A DNA stretch of 64,000 bases from Candidatus Microgenomates bacterium (lineage in GTDB: Bacteria; Patescibacteriota; Microgenomatia; Daviesbacterales; UBA10151). Positions within the stretch are counted from its first letter, which is position 1. Each line of letters begins with the position of its first letter. Below, piece after piece: positions 11,544 through 59,716 of this stretch. The position numbers and the translations under genes were made by a program. The notes under the pieces are model-generated. The model saw only the letters and a list, made by a program, of their open reading frames with translations. It was not told where the DNA came from and made no database searches. The stretch is taken from the NCBI GenBank assembly GCA_016182045.1, contig JACOYE010000009.1, forward strand, positions 1,328 to 65,327, given 5' to 3'.

Positions 11544-11548
11544 CTAAC

Positions 11549-11770
11549 TATTCTTTCGGGGTTTTGTGTAAGTCAAAATCGGTGGTAAAACTCCACGATC
11601 CCGCACCGTCTGGTGCAGGAACGAACTGGTGAAAATCCAGTAGCGACCGTACAGTCGGAATGAAAGAAAGACGTCGTCCCCGCGAAAGCGGGGAACCATA
11701 AAATAATTATATGGATCCCAGACTTGATCTGGAATGACTGATGAATTTAGCCCCGAAAGGGGCTTTTTTG
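11549..11770 (+). ncRNA. orphan small RNA (~220 nt), class unknown
   Basis: Its own promoter lies upstream. It is GC-rich with multiple hairpins (GCACC-GTCT-GGTGC, ACTGG-TGAAAAT-CCAGT, CCCCGC-GAAA-GCGGGG). It ends in a canonical intrinsic terminator (AGCCCCGAAAGGGGCT plus T6 at 11749-11770). No + strand gene follows, and the minus-strand ORF over it looks spurious. Confidence 0.5.
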
Positions 11771-18355: not shown

Positions 18356-19729
18356 TTATTTTTTATTTTTAATATTTACATTTAGTCTTATATCAACTCT
18401 CTCCATATCTCTTGGGAAAAGGGCGGCCTCTCTGATATTTGCAAGACCTAAGATTTGCATGATCATTCTCTCCAGTCCAAAAGAAAATCCTCCCTCAGGC
18501 GGCATACCGTATTTGAAGGCCATTAAATACATCTCAAAATCTTTTGGATCCATGCCGTGAGACTTTATTGACTCGACCAATTGTTGATAGTCATTTATTC
18601 TTTGACTTCCAGACAGTATTTCAATCCCTTTAAATAGTAAATCATAACTTAGGCTGTATTCTGAATTTTTTGGATCCGGCATGGTGTAAAAAGGCTTGGC
18701 AGCAGTTGGGAAATGAGTGACAGTTATAAAATCAGAATTGTGTTTCTTTTTTGCCCATTTGCATAGATCCTGCTCATCTTGGGGTGTTAAATCTTTTTCT
18801 TTCTTATTGTCTCTACCATATTCTTTAAGAATAACTTCCTGAGCTTCTCTTAAAGTTAATCGGGGAATTTTATTATAGACAATCTCCTCTGCACCATATT
18901 CTTTAAGATATAGCTTGGATGAATTTTGAACATGCTCCACCATGCTTATGGCAATACTTTCATAAATATCCATTAATTCATCAAAGGAGGTAAATCCAAA
19001 TTCACAATCCATTTGAGTAACTTCCGCAAGATGCCTGGTAGTGACTGAAGGTTCTGCCCTATATGCTTTGGTAATTGTAAAAACCCTCTCAAAAACAGGA
19101 ACTAACATCTGCTTATAAAGCTGGGGGCTTTGGGTCAAAAATGCTTTATGTTCAAAATATTCTATCCTAAATACCTCCGCACCACCTTCTGTGGATGAGG
19201 CAGCAATGGTTGGAACAACAACTTCAGTACAACCTAATTTTTGACAAACTTGTCTAAATGAAGAAAGCAAAGCTTCTTGGACTTTAAAAATGGCCTTGAT
19301 TTTTGGGTGTCTTAAGCTGAGAGTACGCCAGTCTAAAAGAGTTGGCAGTTCCAAATTAAGAGTTGGACCTCCCATGTCAAATGGCAACTCCGAAGCTTTT
19401 GATAAAATCTCTATACTTTCTGCTGAAATTTCAATTTCTCCAGTGGGAATATTTTTATTGACCAGATTGGTAGGCCTTTTGTTTACCTTACCTATAATGC
19501 AAACCACATCTTGCGGGCTTATCTCACCTCCGAGGTGAGCTGAAGATGTAACCTTGCTCACACCTCGGAGGTGTGTGTCTTGGGATACAACTACTTGTAT
19601 TAACCCAGTTCTATCCAAAACATCCAAAAATAAAATCTTCCCGTGATCGCGCCTGGTCTGAATCCAACCGTAAATGGTCACTATTTCGCCAACTTTATCA
19701 TTACAATCTAAAATTAAAGTTCTTTCCAT
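18356..19729 (-). CDS. aspS: aspartate--tRNA ligase, archaeal/eukaryal-type (class IIb; could be AsnRS)
   Basis: N-terminal OB anticodon-binding fold; class II motifs; C-terminal GGFSFGLERMIM...FPRD. At ~457 aa it fits archaeal-type AspRS. Confidence 0.65.
   Translation of the reverse strand: MERTLILDCNDKVGEIVTIYGWIQTRRDHGKILFLDVLDRTGLIQVVVSQDTHLRGVSKVTSSAHLGGEISPQDVVCIIGKVNKRPTNLVNKNIPTGEIEISAESIEILSKASELPFDMGGPTLNLELPTLLDWRTLSLRHPKIKAIFKVQEALLSSFRQVCQKLGCTEVVVPTIAASSTEGGAEVFRIEYFEHKAFLTQSPQLYKQMLVPVFERVFTITKAYRAEPSVTTRHLAEVTQMDCEFGFTSFDELMDIYESIAISMVEHVQNSSKLYLKEYGAEEIVYNKIPRLTLREAQEVILKEYGRDNKKEKDLTPQDEQDLCKWAKKKHNSDFITVTHFPTAAKPFYTMPDPKNSEYSLSYDLLFKGIEILSGSQRINDYQQLVESIKSHGMDPKDFEMYLMAFKYGMPPEGGFSFGLERMIMQILGLANIREAALFPRDMERVDIRLNVNIKNKK
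19524..19574. repeat. pair of CACCTCCGAGGTG-type palindromic motifs inside the AspRS coding sequence
   Basis: ctcacctccgaggtgag ... ctcacacctcggaggtgtg. Locally GC-rich, it encodes SAHLGGEISPQD within the N-terminal domain. Confidence 0.6.
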
Positions 19730-19796: not shown

Positions 19797-19935
19797 TATG
19801 CAAAAACCACAAGGAAGAAATTTTGGTTTCTTCTTTACCTTCGCTTAAGCGGAGGTTGGCCTGCCTGTCGGCAGACAGGTTTTTGCAAAGCTAACTAAAT
19901 TAGACTAACCTCCGAGATTATTGCGGAGGTTTTTT
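19797..19935 (+). ncRNA. ~140-nt leader or small RNA with two tandem intrinsic terminators
   Basis: Terminator 1 is CCTGTC-GGCA-GACAGG plus T5 (19858-19884). Terminator 2 is CCTCCG...CGGAGG plus T6 (19907-19935). CGGAGGTT at 19846-19853 can pair alternatively with AACCTCCG at 19901-19908. The element lies upstream of the ORF at 19966. Confidence 0.45.
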
Positions 19936-22726: not shown

Positions 22727-22735
22727 ATTATTCCA

Positions 22736-22794
22736 CCTCCGAGGTGTAATTGCTCGCCTCGCTGCGAAGCGGGCATTTCTTCACCTCGGAGGTG
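22736..22794. repeat. composite palindromic element in the recJ-cca intergenic region
   Basis: CACCTCCGAGGTG at 22736-22748, then GCTCGCCTCGCTGCGAAGCGGGC at 22752-22774, then CACCTCGGAGGTG at 22782-22794. Confidence 0.7.
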
Positions 22795-32758: not shown

Positions 32759-32896
32759 ATGCAAATGTATTGCGTCAAATGCCGCACCAAAAGAGATGCT
32801 GAAAACGTTCAACAAGTTACCATGAAAAATGGCAAGAAAGCCTCAAAAGGTACTTGTCCGGTTTGTGGCACCTCAATGTTTAGAATTGGCGGCTAA
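32759..32896 (+). CDS. unannotated 45-aa C4 zinc-ribbon protein (DUF5679-like)
   Basis: Not in the ORF track because it is under 60 aa. RBS GAGGAGGTG lies 11 nt upstream. Translation is MQMYCVKCRTKRDAENVQQVTMKNGKKASKGTCPVCGTSMFRIGG*, with CxxC...CxxC. A terminator follows. Confidence 0.6.
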   Translation: MQMYCVKCRTKRDAENVQQVTMKNGKKASKGTCPVCGTSMFRIGG

Positions 32897-32930
32897 TTTA
32901 AGTGGTGAATGCATTCATCATTTCGATAGT

Positions 32931-32958
32931 CCCGCACCAGATGGTGCGGGATTTTCGT
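32931..32958 (+). terminator. intrinsic terminator
   Basis: CCCGCACC-AGAT-GGTGCGGG followed by ATTTTCGT. Confidence 0.6.
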
Positions 32959-32962
32959 GGCT

Positions 32963-34495
32963 TTAGGATTCATCTCTGGCCCGATACTGTAGTGCCTCAG
33001 CTATATGTTCGGTTAGAATATTTTCTGAAGAAGCCAAATCAGCAATTGTTCTTGCCAGTTTCAAAACTCTATGATAACCTCTGGCAGATAGATTCAAAGA
33101 AGAGATGGCCATTTTTAAAAGCTCTAATCCATCTTGGGTAATGGAACAATACTCCTTTATATCCTGATTGCTCATTTCCGAATTAGTTAAAATCCTACCT
33201 TTAAATCTATCTTGTTGAATTTTTCTTGCACCCCTCACCTTATCTCTGATTGTTTTAGAATCTTCTGCCACCAATTCGGCAGATAATTTATCCACCTCCA
33301 CTGCAGGTACTTCTAAATAGATATCAATCCGATCCAAGAGAGGTCCAGAAATCCTACGTTTATATTTGGCAATCTGTCCTGGCATACAGCTACAAGAGCG
33401 TTTTCTATCTCCCAAGAAACCACAAGGGCAGGGATTTTGAGCGGCCATCAGGATAAATTGGGCGGGAAAAGTCAAAGATCCTGAGGCACGAGAAATGGTG
33501 ATTTTATGATCCTCTAGAGGTTGGCGTAAGCTTTCCAAGACCTGCCGCGGGAACTCCGGCAACTCATCCATAAATAAAACTCCTCTGTGAGCCAAAGATA
33601 TCTCTCCAGGTCTTGGGGAATTTCCACCACCAATTAAACCTATATGAGAAGCGCTATGATGAGGTGATCTGAAGGGACGAGTAGTAATAAGTGATAAGCC
33701 ATTTGGCAAAAGTCCTGCAATAGAATAAATTTTGGTAGCTTCAATTGCCTCGGAAAAAGTTAAGGGAGGTAAAATGGAAGGAAAAGCTCTGGCAAGCATA
33801 GTTTTACCGGCACCTGGCGGACCTTTTAGTAAAATATTGTGTCCGCCGGCCGCCGCAATCTCTAAGGCCCTTTTGGCCTGTTCTTGTCCTTTGATCTGAG
33901 AAAAATCATATTCATAATTTAAATCATCATCTAAATTGAGTGGCGGTTTAGGAATTGGTTTTATGAATTCCTGTCCCAAAAGTATCTTGATCACCTGCTG
34001 TAAAGAATTGGGGGCAAAAACTTTAATTCCTTCAATGATGGCTGCCTCTCCTCCATTTTCTTTGGGAACTAAAATATTTTTGAAACCGATCTCTTTTGCC
34101 AGAATTGCCAATGGTAAAATGCCATGTGTTTTTCTCAATGTCCCATCTAAAGATACTTCACCAACCACCAAAGTTTCATTAAGATTCAAAGAAGAATTTT
34201 GATGAATAATTTGACCTGACGATAAAAGTAAACCCAAAGCTATTGGCAAATCAAAGTAGGGTCCTTCTTTTGGTAAATCTGCAGGAGCTAAATTAACAGT
34301 GATCTTTTTAGCTGGGAACTCTATGTCACAATTTCTGATGGCAGATCTGACTCTTTCTTTAGACTCCTCGACTGCTCGATCAGCTAAACCGACTATGGTA
34401 AATGAAGGTAAACCTTTAGAGGCTATATCAACTTCAACAGTGACTGTTATGGCATCTAGTCCAACGTTAGCGCCAGAAAAAATTTTGGCAAACAT
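32963..34495 (-). CDS. comM: YifB/ComM-family Mg-chelatase-like AAA+ ATPase
   Basis: N-terminal MFAKIFSGANVGLDAITVTVEVD, Walker A GPPGAGKT, and a ChlI-like C-terminal region. Confidence 0.8.
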   Translation of the reverse strand: MFAKIFSGANVGLDAITVTVEVDIASKGLPSFTIVGLADRAVEESKERVRSAIRNCDIEFPAKKITVNLAPADLPKEGPYFDLPIALGLLLSSGQIIHQNSSLNLNETLVVGEVSLDGTLRKTHGILPLAILAKEIGFKNILVPKENGGEAAIIEGIKVFAPNSLQQVIKILLGQEFIKPIPKPPLNLDDDLNYEYDFSQIKGQEQAKRALEIAAAGGHNILLKGPPGAGKTMLARAFPSILPPLTFSEAIEATKIYSIAGLLPNGLSLITTRPFRSPHHSASHIGLIGGGNSPRPGEISLAHRGVLFMDELPEFPRQVLESLRQPLEDHKITISRASGSLTFPAQFILMAAQNPCPCGFLGDRKRSCSCMPGQIAKYKRRISGPLLDRIDIYLEVPAVEVDKLSAELVAEDSKTIRDKVRGARKIQQDRFKGRILTNSEMSNQDIKEYCSITQDGLELLKMAISSLNLSARGYHRVLKLARTIADLASSENILTEHIAEALQYRARDES

Positions 34496-34548: not shown

Positions 34549-34909
34549 GTGCCTAGGAAGAGAGTAAGCCAGATTCTGTTTTCTCGCTTCGCGAAGCGAG
34601 TAGATGATCATTTATCTAATGCTCCTCATTTCGACTAGTTGGCGAGCAGCCTAAGTCGGTTCTAGGATTGCAGCGGGGAGGATTGCCCTTCGACTCGTCC
34701 CGATTACATCGGGACTCGCTCAGGGCTATAGCCCTTTGCTTATCGAATACCCTGTGGCTTGATCGTTTCACTCGGCGCCACCCGAATCGTCACTGTTGCT
34801 CTATACTCGCGGTCACCCGGTCTCGCCTTGCGGCGGACACCCTACTCTTTGCTGTCTGGACTTTCCTGTCCCGATTTAATCGGGACCGATCATCCTTCTT
34901 CCTAGGCTT
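34549..34909 (-). ncRNA. rnpB: RNase P RNA (bacterial type A-like)
   Basis: On the minus strand: P1 AGCCTAGGAAGA paired with TCTTCCTAGGC; P2 GATGATC with GATCATC; P3 hairpin GGTCCCGATTAAATCGGGAC; universally conserved ACAGGAAAGTCCAGAC (P4 5' strand); CAACAGTGA (J11/12-like); P4 3' strand CTAGAACCGACTTAG. A TATAAT -10 sits just upstream. The overlapping + strand ORF 34668-34967 is spurious. Confidence 0.8.
34583..34600. repeat. perfect GC palindrome CTCGCTTCGCGAAGCGAG embedded in rnpB
   Basis: It lies between the P2 3' strand and the P1 3' strand of the RNase P RNA and belongs to the same repeat family as the coding-region insertions. Confidence 0.6.
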
Positions 34910-36948: not shown

Positions 36949-38286
36949 ATGAAGATTGCCATATTGGGTGCTGGTTTTACCGGACTTTCTGCTGCCTTTA
37001 GACTTTTACAAAAAGGTTATCAGGTGACTATTTTTGAGAAGGAAGAAAGTTCAGGCGGATTGGCCGTGGGGTTTAAATTAGCCAACTGGCAGTGGAGTTT
37101 AGAAAAAGGTTATCATCACTGGTTTACCAATGATGATTCCATTTTGCATTTGGCCAAAGAGATAAATCACCAGGTAATCATTGAACGTCCTAGTACAGAT
37201 GTTTTTACTCATGGTAAGCGTTTACCTTTTGATAGTGCGACCACCCTGATAAATTTTAGATACCTACCAATTATTGACAGAGTCCGGGTAGCTTTAATCT
37301 TGGCATTTTTAAAAATACTACCAAGCCATCATTTACTTGATGGTAAAAAAGCTTTACCTTGGATCAGAAAATTTATGGGGGAAAAATCCACCAAACTTAT
37401 CTGGAACCCCCTTTTTACTTCTAAATTTGGCAAGTTTAGTGAACAGATTGCTCTCACCTGGTTTTGGGCCAGAATTAAAAAAAGAACCCCTTCTTTGGCT
37501 TATCCCCAAGAAGGATTTCAAGCTTTTGCCGATCATCTAGGTAAAGAGATTAAAAAAATGGGTGGGGAAATCTTGCTAAATACTCAAGTTGTCGAATTGG
37601 TAAGTAGAAATAACGATGTTGTTGTTAAAACTACCAACTACCCGCTTCGCGACTTTCGTCGACGCAGGCGCGAGGCGAGCCAACTACCAACTACCAACTA
37701 CTATTTCGACAAAGTAATAGTTACTTTACCCTCTCCTATCTTTACAAAAATTGCCCATGGACTGCCCAAGCAATACACGGATAGAATAACCTCAATTCCT
37801 CATCTGCATGCTCAGGTATTAATCCTGATTTTAAACAAACCTTTTATGGATAAAACCTATTGGTTAAATATTACAGAAAAGGATTTCCCTTTCTTGATCT
37901 TGGCAGAACATACCAACTTTATGGATTCCAAATACTATGGCGGACAACATATCTTATATATAGGCAATTATCTGCCGCCTGATCATCCGTATCTTAAGAT
38001 GACTGTGAAAGAATTATTAAAAGTTTTTGACCCTTTTCTTAAAAAGATAAATCCAAACTACCAACTACATACTACAAACTACCAACTATTCATTGGTCCT
38101 TTTGCCCAGCCCATTGTCACAGTTGACTACCCAAACTTGATTCCATCATTTACAACTCCACTAAAAGGAGTTTATCTTGCCAACTTAGACATGGTCTATC
38201 CTTGGGATAGGGGAACAAATTATGCTGTTGAGCTGGGAGAGAAAATTGCTGATATGATAGATAAAGATCATGCCAAAGTTAAATAA
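36949..38286 (+). CDS. FAD-dependent oxidoreductase (amine-oxidase / phytoene-desaturase-like Rossmann fold)
   Basis: Dinucleotide-binding motif IAILGAGFTGLSAA...IFEKE. First gene of the GT-C cluster. Confidence 0.65.
   Translation: MKIAILGAGFTGLSAAFRLLQKGYQVTIFEKEESSGGLAVGFKLANWQWSLEKGYHHWFTNDDSILHLAKEINHQVIIERPSTDVFTHGKRLPFDSATTLINFRYLPIIDRVRVALILAFLKILPSHHLLDGKKALPWIRKFMGEKSTKLIWNPLFTSKFGKFSEQIALTWFWARIKKRTPSLAYPQEGFQAFADHLGKEIKKMGGEILLNTQVVELVSRNNDVVVKTTNYPLRDFRRRRREASQLPTTNYYFDKVIVTLPSPIFTKIAHGLPKQYTDRITSIPHLHAQVLILILNKPFMDKTYWLNITEKDFPFLILAEHTNFMDSKYYGGQHILYIGNYLPPDHPYLKMTVKELLKVFDPFLKKINPNYQLHTTNYQLFIGPFAQPIVTVDYPNLIPSFTTPLKGVYLANLDMVYPWDRGTNYAVELGEKIADMIDKDHAKVK
37641..37681. repeat. 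GC-rich palindromic element inserted in-frame in the FAD-oxidoreductase gene
   Basis: cccgcttcgcgactttcgtcgacgcaggcgcgaggcgagcc is ~75% GC in an AT-rich gene and encodes PLRDFRRRRREAS. It shares end motifs CCCGCTTCGC...GCGAGGCGAGCC with 54102-54130 and 22752-22774. Confidence 0.7.
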
Positions 38287-54077: not shown

Positions 54078-55186
54078 TAAGCAGCAACTTCTTCAATTAT
54101 ACCCGCTTCGCCCGCGAAGCGAGGCGAGCCAGTTTCTTCCTCTTTTCCAACAACCATTTCTTTCCCTTCCTTTTGTTTACCCCAGGCTTCCCTTATTTCT
54201 TTTTCCAAATTTAGGGCCTCTTTCTTATTGGCTTTTAAGTAATCTATTGCAGCTTGTCTGCCCTGACCCAACATGATTTCATTCCATTTTATAAAGGCTC
54301 CTGACTTTTGTAGAATTCCAAGCTCCAATCCCACATCCAAAAGTTCTCCTTCGTGAGAAATTCCATTTTCATCCATATCAAATTCGGCAATTCTAAATGG
54401 GGGAGCCACTTTATTTTTGACAACCTTAACTCTGTGTCTTGAACCAACCACTGTGTCTCCCACTTTGATATTTTCAATTTTTCTAATATCTAGTCTAACT
54501 GATGTATAGAATTTTAAAGCTAATCCACCTGGAGTAGTCTCCGGGTTCCCAAACATCACTCCAATTTTTTGTCTTAACTGGTTAGTAAAAATAATAATCG
54601 TATTTGTATTTGATACTGCTCCGGTTAATTTTCTTAAAGCCTGAGACATCAGTCTTGCCTGCATACCCATCACAGCATCTCCCATCTCCCCTTCAAGCTC
54701 TGCCCTAGGCACCAAAGCTGCAACTGAGTCTATTACCAATACATCAATTCCGCCAGATCTGATCAAAGCCTCTGCAATTTCTAAAGCCTGCTCGCCAGTA
54801 TCTGGTTGGGAAATTAAAAGATCATCTAAATTAACACCTATCTTTTGTGCTCTTTGGGGATCCAAAGCATGCTCTGCATCAATAAATGCTGCCACTCCAC
54901 CTCTTTTTTGTGCCTCAGCTATAACATGAAGACAGACTGTGGTTTTTCCGCCTGCCTCTGGGCCAAAAACTTCAATAATCCTGCCTCTTGGCAAACCTCC
55001 AACTCCTAAAGCAAGATCTAAAGCGATAGAACCTGTGGGGATAACTTGGGTAGTCAGTTTCTCTGCTCTTTCACCCAACCGCATAATAGAACCAGTACCA
55101 TATTGCTTTTGGATCTGTTGCATGGCCGCGGCAATTGCAGCTTTACGGGCCTCATCATTGGGTTGTGCCATAATCCTATTATACAA
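54077..55186 (-). CDS. recA: recombinase RecA
   Basis: Walker [10 protein letters not shown] and the L1/L2 loop regions. The C-terminal tail contains a GC-rich element insertion. Confidence 0.9.
54102..54130. repeat. GC-rich palindromic element in-frame in the recA C-terminal tail
   Basis: cccgcttcgcccgcgaagcgaggcgagcc encodes SPRFAGEAG within the RecA tail. Confidence 0.7.
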
Positions 55187-59658: not shown

Positions 59659-59716
59659 AAGAACCTCGCTTCGCGAGAACCTTGCGATAGTTCCGACTTC
59701 GTCGTAATAACTATCT

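Follow-up and report, generated by a model that had tools for sequence, protein, structure and literature searches.

The RNA of RNase P is an essential ribozyme whose optional helices tend to be taken as lineage-specific structural adaptations. Short repeats known from other bacteria differ in length and arrangement: STRRs are tandem heptamer arrays that extend helix P12, Rickettsia palindromic elements (RPE) are about 100–150 bp long, and REP/BIME elements are imperfect palindromes of ~20–40 nt that are present in many copies, at times in tandem or inverted pairs, are RAYT-mobilised and are extragenic by definition. STRR repeats were reportedly found inside rnpB of heterocyst-forming cyanobacteria by Vioque in 1997 (Nucleic Acids Res 25:3471), and RPE are said to have been described by Ogata et al. 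in 2000.

RPE are also mentioned in a passage of PMC1779305. [quoted passage not shown] With respect to RNase P RNA itself, optional P19 helices occur in type B RNAs and in some class-A RNAs, such as those of the PVC superphylum, and RNAs without P19 carry a 4-nt R19 linker at that place (PMC9945441). The RNase P RNAs of CPR bacteria are diverged, with helices either missing or extended (PMC8172020). We describe here a palindrome located in the rnpB gene of a Daviesbacteria-like CPR bacterium, which is probably a copy of a small dispersed palindromic element lodged in the R19 linker and carried by the RNA as a P19-like hairpin.

The rnpB gene and its P19 position

The window, that is, the whole stretch of 64 kb that was analyzed, contains a single RNase P RNA gene found by Rfam. 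The gene matches RF00010 (RNaseP_bact_a) with 107.3 bits, the gathering score being 100 (E = 7.6e-32), and the match covers model positions 1–367 and is not truncated. On one side rnpB has comM (32963–34495) as its neighbor, and on the other a gene for an AI-2E-type permease. When the ComM protein was used for a search, matches with 67–77% identity were obtained in genomes of Candidatus Daviesbacteria (Microgenomates, CPR), and rnpB adjoins comM in 15 Daviesbacteria genomes. A hairpin situated after the comM stop codon (32930–32951) is identical at 23 of 24 positions to P12 of the rnpB gene of L001 (loci of relatives are designated by L numbers); it is also similar to the variable stem that the window's FMN riboswitch has at 11601–11618. 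At the orthologous comM 3′ site, the terminator carries three different hairpin families in three genomes.

The window rnpB has the features of a class-A RNA. Its P1, P2 and P4 strands are complementary; the 5′ strand of P4, GGAAAGUCCAG (34856–34866), and its 3′ strand, ACAGAAUCUGGCUUAC (within 34564–34582), pair as GUCCAG/CUGGCU. This pairing includes an A-U covariation common to all relatives, and the conserved nucleotides of J3/4 and J19/4 are present.

An earlier note on this DNA had pointed to a perfect 18-nt palindrome embedded in the RNase P RNA gene. The same sequence, CTCGCTTCGCGAAGCGAG, is found exactly at 34583–34600, with two 9-nt arms that are reverse complements of each other, and the full-length RF00010 match (34549–34905) contains it. 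The note had located the palindrome between the 3′ strands of P2 and P1, an interval that the covariance-model alignment narrows to the one between the 3′ strands of P2 and P4: read as RNA, the P2 3′ strand is followed by UA, the palindrome, J19/4 with the P4 3′ strand, and the P1 3′ strand. The comparison with the model that the note had suggested was run against RF00010. The palindrome is aligned to unpaired variable columns between the P2 3′ strand and the ACAGAA of P4, and 7 nt are scored as an insertion relative to the model. This location between the P2 3′ strand and J19/4-P4 is that of P19, and the palindrome replaces the 4-nt R19 linker there; the extra hairpin that had been likened to P19 is thus placed by the alignment in the P19 slot. 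Coordinates of the features are listed in Table 1.

Table 1. Position of the rnpB elements and of the palindromic repeats in the window and in relatives.
Feature	Position	Strand	Remarks
rnpB, class-A RNase P RNA, 357 nt	34549-34905	-	RF00010 match; fold z-score -6.2
P1 3′ strand	34553-34561	-	Covariance-model alignment
J19/4 A-run and P4 3′ strand, AAAACAGAAUCUGGCUUAC	34564-34582	-	Intact, directly 3′ of the putative insertion
P19-like hairpin, palindrome CUCGCUUCGCGAAGCGAG	34583-34600	-	Family B member; predicted 7-bp stem and CGCG loop
P2 3′ strand, GAUCAUC	34603-34609	-	Covariance-model alignment; intact, 2-nt UA spacer to the palindrome
Composite S-domain hairpin, CCCUGAGCGAG[UCCCGAUGUAAUCGGGA]CGAGUCGAAGGG	34686-34725	-	Inner stem 34697-34715
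Family B, GCTCGCCTCGCTGCGAAGCGGGC	22751-22774	+	recJ/cca divergent intergenic spacer
Family B, expanded centre	37641-37681	-	In frame in FAD-dependent oxidoreductase ORF (36949-38286)
Family B, GGCTCGCCTCGCTTCGCGGGCGAAGCGGG	54102-54130	-	In frame, RecA C-terminal tail; 10 residues encoded
Short family-B-like hairpin, CTCGCTTCGCGAG	59665-59677	+	metK 5′ leader; the start codon follows after 6 nt on the strand of the gene
Family-A palindrome, CTCACCTCCGAGGTGAG	19523-19539	-	Non-discriminating AspRS
Family-A palindrome, CACACCTCGGAGGTGTG	19559-19575	-	Non-discriminating AspRS
Family B copies in relatives	L023:5926-5983; L002:5908-5955 (tandem pair); L127:4106-4130; L192:about 1334		

Features of the palindrome

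In the whole 64-kb window, CTCGCTTCGCGAAGCGAG is the sole perfect palindrome with arms of at least 9 nt. When base composition is left aside, a perfect 18-nt palindrome is not rare by chance, as 39% of 300 dinucleotide shuffles contain one. Palindromes of this length with at least 60% G+C are present in 0.3% of 300 shuffles, the G+C content of the window being ~37%. The segment, folded alone with its flanks, has a predicted energy of −9.0 kcal/mol for the stem and loop given in Table 1. Downstream of the hairpin the sequence reads AAAACAGAA in RNA sense, and TAGATGATC on the opposite strand. As the hairpin is followed by AAAACAG and not by a U-run, it does not constitute an intrinsic terminator.

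A dispersed family of palindromic repeats

No second match to CTCGCTTCGCGAAGCGAG is present in the window, even when up to 3 mismatches are allowed, and its 12-mer core has no second copy there either. The repeat family surfaced once each 9-nt arm was searched on its own, and it is on these arms that the family membership of the rnpB palindrome rests. The arm motif CGAAGCGRG is present 7 times in the window vs 0.09 expected, and none of 100 shuffles reaches 7. The matches fall at five loci, namely rnpB, the recJ/cca spacer, the oxidoreductase ORF, the RecA tail and the metK leader; three of the five (rnpB, the oxidoreductase ORF and recA) are inside genes. The motif CTCGCYTCG, with at most 1 mismatch, occurs 18 times in the window vs 4.8 expected. 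Copies of this family, which we term family B, have the termini (GG)CTCGCYTCG(C) ... (G)CGAAGCGRG(YA), separated by a centre of 0 to ~35 nt. In alignment A1 these termini are common to 10 copies of 13–58 nt from four genomes (the window, L023, L002 and L127). Family B thus has the attributes of a dispersed family: multiple related copies, far above chance, presence or absence of copies at orthologous sites, and the same termini in relatives. With the enrichment of arm motifs and the in-frame copies in the oxidoreductase and RecA, the earlier proposal that the rnpB palindrome belongs to the same family as palindromes within coding genes is borne out.

Some copies are combined with other sequences. 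The one in the recJ/cca spacer is flanked by inverted palindromes of a second family, family A (CACCTCCGAGGTG at 22734–22746 and CACCTCGGAGGTG at 22782–22794), and in L127 (4106–4143) an identical B core is followed by an A element. Each of the copies of L002 is followed by TAGCTGG. With these L002 copies the window palindrome has 14 consecutive identical bases (CTCGCTTCGCGAAG), a match that links it to the family and not to selection for RNA pairing. It is devoid of the outer GG...YA that most family-B copies include, and it is a perfected palindrome with a minimal centre; the rnpB copy is hence either an edge member of the family or a remodelled one.

The family is not enriched across the loci of the relatives taken overall, where 9 arm motifs in 705 kb are about what chance would give; family B is therefore concentrated in few genomes and is not lineage-wide. 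A scan of viral_contigs with the pattern CTCGCYTCGC-N(0-30)-GCGAAGYGRG gave 32 loci, 31 of them at 52–73% G+C and one at 40%, and these were taken as background.

We also compared the copies located in protein genes with the corresponding genes of relatives. The oxidoreductase copy encodes about PLRDFRRRRREASQ (+14–20 aa), an insert that is absent from the 5 orthologs in the loci and from 10 aligned homologs (alignment A2); the protein is 445 aa long in the window vs 407–442 aa in all 119 homologs listed. The element is situated inside a tandem array of the heptamer CAACTAC. The closest relative, L192, has such an array and no element, and several more distant homologs have other short inserts at the same stretch. 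RecA orthologs diverge or stop before the tail in which the family-B copy is found. The family A motif CACCTCSGAGGTG is present 4 times in the window vs 0.00 expected. Each of the two AspRS palindromes of this family corresponds to a separate 7-aa in-frame insertion, and both are absent in the orthologs L154 and L094. Relative to the orthologs, the coding copies are insertions.

The P19 site in relatives

The P19 site was compared in 93 relatives, all of them Daviesbacteria-type rnpB 3′ ends, of which 15 come from GTDB genomes, 77 from metagenomes and 1 from a Logan contig. The scan for the rnpB 3′ end that yielded the 77 metagenome loci allowed 1–31 nt between the 3′ strands of P2 and P4. In 79 of the 93 the site contains a linker of 3–5 nt alone (TAAA, GAGA, TTGA, TAA and similar), an example being ATCATC-TAA-AACAGAA in L014. 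This agrees with the published 4-nt R19 rule for RNAs devoid of P19 (PMC9945441). The site is also empty in L192, the closest relative among those compared, whose oxidoreductase is 78% identical to that of the window in alignment A2 and 76% by BLASTP: the sequence reads ATCATC-AAA-AACAGAA, vs ATCATC-UA[18 nt]AA-AACAGAA in the window, and the rest of the rnpB 3′ domain is nearly identical in both. The sequence of the empty site is ATCATCTAAAACAGAA. All comparisons of filled and empty sites, at rnpB as well as at the oxidoreductase, are between species.

Hairpins are present at the site in the other 14 relatives, and they comprise about nine unrelated sequences that are not alignable; every longer linker is predicted to fold as a hairpin. 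L023 is the only one of the 14 carriers in which the hairpin, CTCGCCTCGATTCGTCGAAGCGGG, resembles the window palindrome, and its flanks are identical. This sequence form is accordingly present in 2 of the 94 Daviesbacteria-type rnpB genes sampled. On the P2 side, the flank ATCATCTA does not differ between relatives that have a hairpin and those that lack one. On the P4 side, AACAGAATCTGGCTTA is found in all 15 genome loci; its invariance in the 77 metagenome loci follows from the way in which these were selected. Logan contigs with an identical ComM do not reach the palindrome and stop 6 nt before it, at window position 34576.

The slot is thus conserved and the helix is not, there being no native P19 with compensatory changes across the relatives; different hairpins have come to lie in this slot time and again. 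The conserved native P19 or P18 helix with covariation that the earlier note had named as the observation that would speak against its reading was thus not encountered.

These data bear on another possibility, a P19 expansion helix that is native to the RNase P RNA of this sub-lineage, has been inherited vertically and serves a structural role; the resemblance to other palindromes of the genome would then be coincidental, or those palindromes would derive from the helix. Class-A RNAs, e.g., those of the PVC group, are known to include P19 as an optional helix (PMC9945441), and a hairpin is also found at the P19 site of a canonical 488-nt rnpB group (L086 and others, 209 bits). The related hairpin of L023 is located at exactly the same site, and the window, L023, L014, L007 and L192 have the start of an extended S-domain in common, which suggests that their rnpB genes are related. 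However, L192, L014 and L007 exhibit this S-domain signature without any hairpin, and L002, which a poorly resolved comM tree places as sister to L023, is also devoid of it, so that a native helix requires losses in L192, L014, L007 and L002. In addition, the arms match dispersed copies located in unrelated contexts, and coincidence does not account for an enrichment of 7 vs 0.09 arm motifs. The hairpin of L023, CTCGCCTCG-ATTCGT-CGAAGCGGG, has a U.G at position 2 and a C.A at position 6, the same as the intergenic and coding copies; it keeps the non-complementary positions of the family, which points to a repeat origin and not to selection for pairing. We consider a native helix unlikely on these grounds. 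The presence of a related hairpin at the identical site in L023 could still be part of a pattern of vertical inheritance with losses; the comM neighbor-joining tree is star-like and does not decide whether a single ancestral insertion accounts for the hairpins of both the window and L023.

Origin of the rnpB hairpin

The palindrome might instead have been made in place, by fold-back or template-switch repair (quasi-palindrome perfection) and with no transfer from another copy. The perfect symmetry of the rnpB copy, vs the imperfect family consensus, would fit such an event, and templated inverted insertions of very small size are documented at yeast DNA breaks (PMC11724301). One of the arms should then pre-exist in the flank, but the empty sites (TCTA/AAAAC) have neither of them, and the arms are common to at least 9 other copies, which makes an origin in place improbable. 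Template switching may account for how the palindrome became perfect, but not for its origin; the symmetry of the rnpB copy suggests a later quasi-palindrome correction.

It is most improbable that the hairpin is a DNA or RNA signal, such as a protein-binding site, uptake sequence or terminator, which functions as such and overlaps rnpB by chance. In favor of a signal, the family motif is over-represented, one copy is located in the metK leader near the ribosome-binding region and another between divergent promoters, and these genomes contain further hairpin families with the look of bidirectional terminators. Against it, the rnpB hairpin has no U-run after it in RNA sense, a motif density of ~0.1 per kb is too low for an uptake sequence (known ones are far denser), the coding copies are insertions and not point-mutated matches, and the site is empty in most relatives.

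Insertion of a dispersed element, which we favor, would have taken place at the DNA level, a family-B copy entering the 3–5-nt R19 linker between the P2 3′ strand and J19/4-P4 and leaving the conserved flanks (P2, the A-rich J19/4, P4 and P1) untouched. The inserted copy would then be transcribed as part of the RNase P RNA and, being self-complementary, should fold on itself into the 7-bp hairpin with its CGCG loop. Such a P19-like hairpin would stand out from the catalytic core where other bacteria have the optional P19. As it is predicted to point away from the P4 core, the ribozyme is likely to tolerate the insertion, and the hairpin would be a tolerated passenger, neutral for catalysis, comparable to the in-frame copies that persist in a variable stretch of the oxidoreductase and in the RecA tail.

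The copies may have spread through an enzyme that acts in trans and is encoded elsewhere, or else other copies may have served as the source for templated insertion or gene conversion. A Pfam scan of 20 small ORFs in the window, i.e., in 64 kb of a roughly 1 Mb genome, identified no Y1/RAYT-type transposase among them. No clear target-site duplication was seen at the rnpB site, where the A-run makes one undetectable. The sequence GCGAAGC is known to form an unusually stable DNA mini-hairpin. It is contained in each family-B arm of the palindrome, and it could matter for a mechanism based on single-stranded DNA.

Other rnpB helices and a possible exchange of hairpins

The inner stem of the composite S-domain hairpin (34697–34715) has the same stem sequence as P3 of the window rnpB (GUCCCGAUUAAAUCGGGAC, 34868–34886). 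The composite is identical at 35 of its 40 positions to L001:2227–2266, which lies outside the rnpB gene of L001, and small relatives have ~4 nt here. A 17-mer of the P3/S-domain stem, TCCCGATTAAATCGGGA, is found again in L009, at a place outside rnpB, and L016 and L156 have a 16-mer variant of it outside rnpB. In 72 relatives, P3 exhibits about ten cassette-like sequence types, and the length of rnpB in relatives varies from 261 to 418 nt. GC-rich 14-mers of rnpB are found outside rnpB 93 times, vs 22 in a reversed-sequence control, a recurrence which suggests that hairpin cassettes may be exchanged in general.

We put forward, quite tentatively, that Daviesbacteria have a common pool of short GC-rich hairpin cassettes (at least six families) which are exchanged among peripheral helices of RNAs, terminators and variable protein stretches, the P19 hairpin being one instance of this. 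The RNA sites that such a pool might reach, a point on which we are equally doubtful, would be P3, the S-domain, P18 and P19 of RNase P RNA and the variable stem of the FMN riboswitch.

Comparison with described systems and significance

The case of cyanobacterial rnpB is similar to the present one in that a genome-wide short repeat feeds a helix at the periphery of an RNase P RNA that is normal in other respects. The STRRs, however, form a tandem array that extends P12, whereas here a single palindromic unit would have created P19, and the phylum is another. The likeness to RPE is by description, and no sequence relationship is claimed. In both instances a dispersed palindrome is present in non-coding DNA and also, in frame, in ORFs, and its presence is tolerated at harmless places; the in-frame copies found here are those of the oxidoreductase and the RecA tail and the two AspRS insertions of family A. 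The elements described here are of 18–60 nt (13–58 nt as aligned) vs 100–150 bp for RPE, and they reside not in Rickettsia but in a CPR bacterium that is free-living or epibiotic. The tandem pair of L002 and the A-B-A cluster at 22734–22794 resemble REP/BIME arrangements, but family B is present inside ORFs and in an RNA gene and does not correspond to REP sensu stricto, which are extragenic.

The closest analogy is provided by the GC clusters and by the double-hairpin elements of fungal and sponge mtDNA, which are also short GC-rich hairpins in an AT-rich genome. They differ in being organellar, and those of the GC42 type have a defined AG target, whereas none is definable here. With respect to the P19 expansion helix of other bacteria (PMC9945441), position and simple hairpin form are the same, and so is the apparent dispensability, given the absence of the hairpin in most relatives; here its sequence is that of a dispersed repeat, and unrelated hairpins are present at the site in other lineages.

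We found no account of such dispersed palindromic repeats in CPR bacteria in the literature, and a literature search with the motif strings gave unrelated primer matches alone. The earlier note had considered that a helix contributed by a repeat to an essential ribozyme would be unusual. It is indeed uncommon, but it is not unprecedented, in view of the optional P19 and of the STRR in rnpB. There are precedents for every ingredient; the family and the phylum are new, and the kind of optional helix was already known.

The rnpB scores are of 84–99 bits in several relatives vs 107 in the window, and insertions help to explain why rnpB genes of CPR bacteria score near or below the Rfam threshold. 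The repeats of CPR bacteria are largely undescribed, and short coding palindromes are here recorded in a member of this group. If the rnpB palindrome is a copy of family B, the origin of one optional helix would be traceable to a dispersed palindromic repeat that is also present inside protein genes, and this would be a concrete case of ribozyme expansion segments that arise from selfish or repair-derived hairpins at permissive linkers. Were the pool of hairpin cassettes to exist, the peripheral structure of RNAs in reduced genomes would evolve mostly by insertion, nesting and replacement of cassettes, and not by compensatory point mutation.

Hairpins at the 3′ end of comM

The hairpin located directly past the comM stop codon is identical at 23 of 24 positions to the P12 hairpin of the RNase P RNA gene (rnpB) of L001, a locus from a Daviesbacteria-type relative, as are all L-numbered loci. 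When the orthologous site 3′ of comM was compared between the window, L132 and L192 (the closest relative among those compared), the flanks were found to be kept, but each of the three genomes has a terminator-like hairpin from a different sequence family. Hairpins at this site seem to take each other's place. The window's post-comM hairpin, TCCCGCACCATCTGGTGCGGGA (minus strand), is also similar to CCGCACCGTCTGGTGCAG, the FMN riboswitch's variable stem.

Stems shared between rnpB and other sites

In the window rnpB, P3 and an S-domain hairpin have the stem GTCCCGAT...ATCGGGAC in common. Its sequence is found again beyond rnpB, as TCCCGATTAAATCGGGA and as the variant CCCGATTAAATCGGGG, and a variant of it occupies the P19 site (the linker between the P2 3′ strand and J19/4-P4) of L127. 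A further motif, CCTGAGCGA..GTCGAAGG, is shared by the window, L014, L007 and L120 in their rnpB S-domains, where the motif in some cases has a second hairpin nested at its centre; it also turns up at non-rnpB sites of other genomes. The GC-rich palindrome CCTGCCTGCCGGCAGG is repeated across many Daviesbacteria loci and within the rnpB of L083, and a related sequence lies upstream of the window AspRS gene.

Palindromes and repeats within coding genes

The non-discriminating AspRS contains two family-A palindromes, CACCTCCGAGGTG and CACCTCGGAGGTG, each of which adds 7 amino acids in frame; sequence comparison showed that both inserts are missing in the orthologs of L154 and L094. The same pair brackets a copy of the GC-rich palindromic family B. 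Another family-B element is located within a tandem repeat of the heptamer CAACTAC in the FAD-dependent oxidoreductase ORF. The L192 ORF has CAAACTA as its tandem heptamer, and the repeats of both encode TTNY-type repeats; in other homologs, the same protein stretch holds short inserts of unrelated sequence.

Coordinates of the features (window positions unless a locus is named)
Feature	Location	Remark
FMN riboswitch	11548-11675	CCGCACCGTCTGGTGCAG at 11601-11618
CACCTCCGAGGTG, CACCTCGGAGGTG	19523-19539, 19559-19575	Mutually inverted
CCTGCCTGCCGGCAGG-related	19857-19884	
CCTGCCTGCCGGCAGG copies	L135:3027, L139:1744, L112:3628, L088:13108, L144:1643, L003:1780, L083 rnpB	
Family-B copy with bracketing pair	22734-22794	
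Post-comM hairpin	32930-32951	
Compared comM 3′ sites	32890-32960, L132:250-330, L192:about 1700-1750	
CCTGAGCGA..GTCGAAGG	34686-34725	rnpB S-domain
CCTGAGCGA..GTCGAAGG	L001:2227-2266, L012:6004-6024, L088:7666-7685	Non-rnpB
S-domain hairpin	34697-34715	
P3	34868-34886	
TCCCGATTAAATCGGGA	L009:6888-6904	
CCCGATTAAATCGGGG	L016:6542-6557, L156:5375-5390	
Heptamer repeat	37620-37705	
L192 oxidoreductase ORF	L192:5612-6889	
rnpB 3′-end repeats	L138:7234-7253, L012:3628-3645, L126:1990-2009, L133:1731-1750	

Position, 3′ end and size of rnpB

Among L001-L023 and L192, rnpB adjoins comM, yet their relative orientation varies between species: the window, L014, L016 and L018 have both genes on one strand; in L023, L003, L017, L005, L006, L012, L002 and L192 they lie on opposite strands. 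In several relatives the final 18-20 nt of rnpB (e.g., GCTTACTATCTTCCTAGGCA) are duplicated 25-50 nt 3′ of the gene, which looks like an att-type duplication or the remnant of a 3′-end insertion.

Many Daviesbacteria (L016, L018, L010, L088, L104 and others) have an rnpB of just 261-285 nt, with about 4 nt in place of P13/P14 and without P18, and in several relatives Rfam scores of 84-99 bits fall under the gathering threshold. Both features are consistent with the diverged RNase P RNAs reported for CPR bacteria (PMC8172020).
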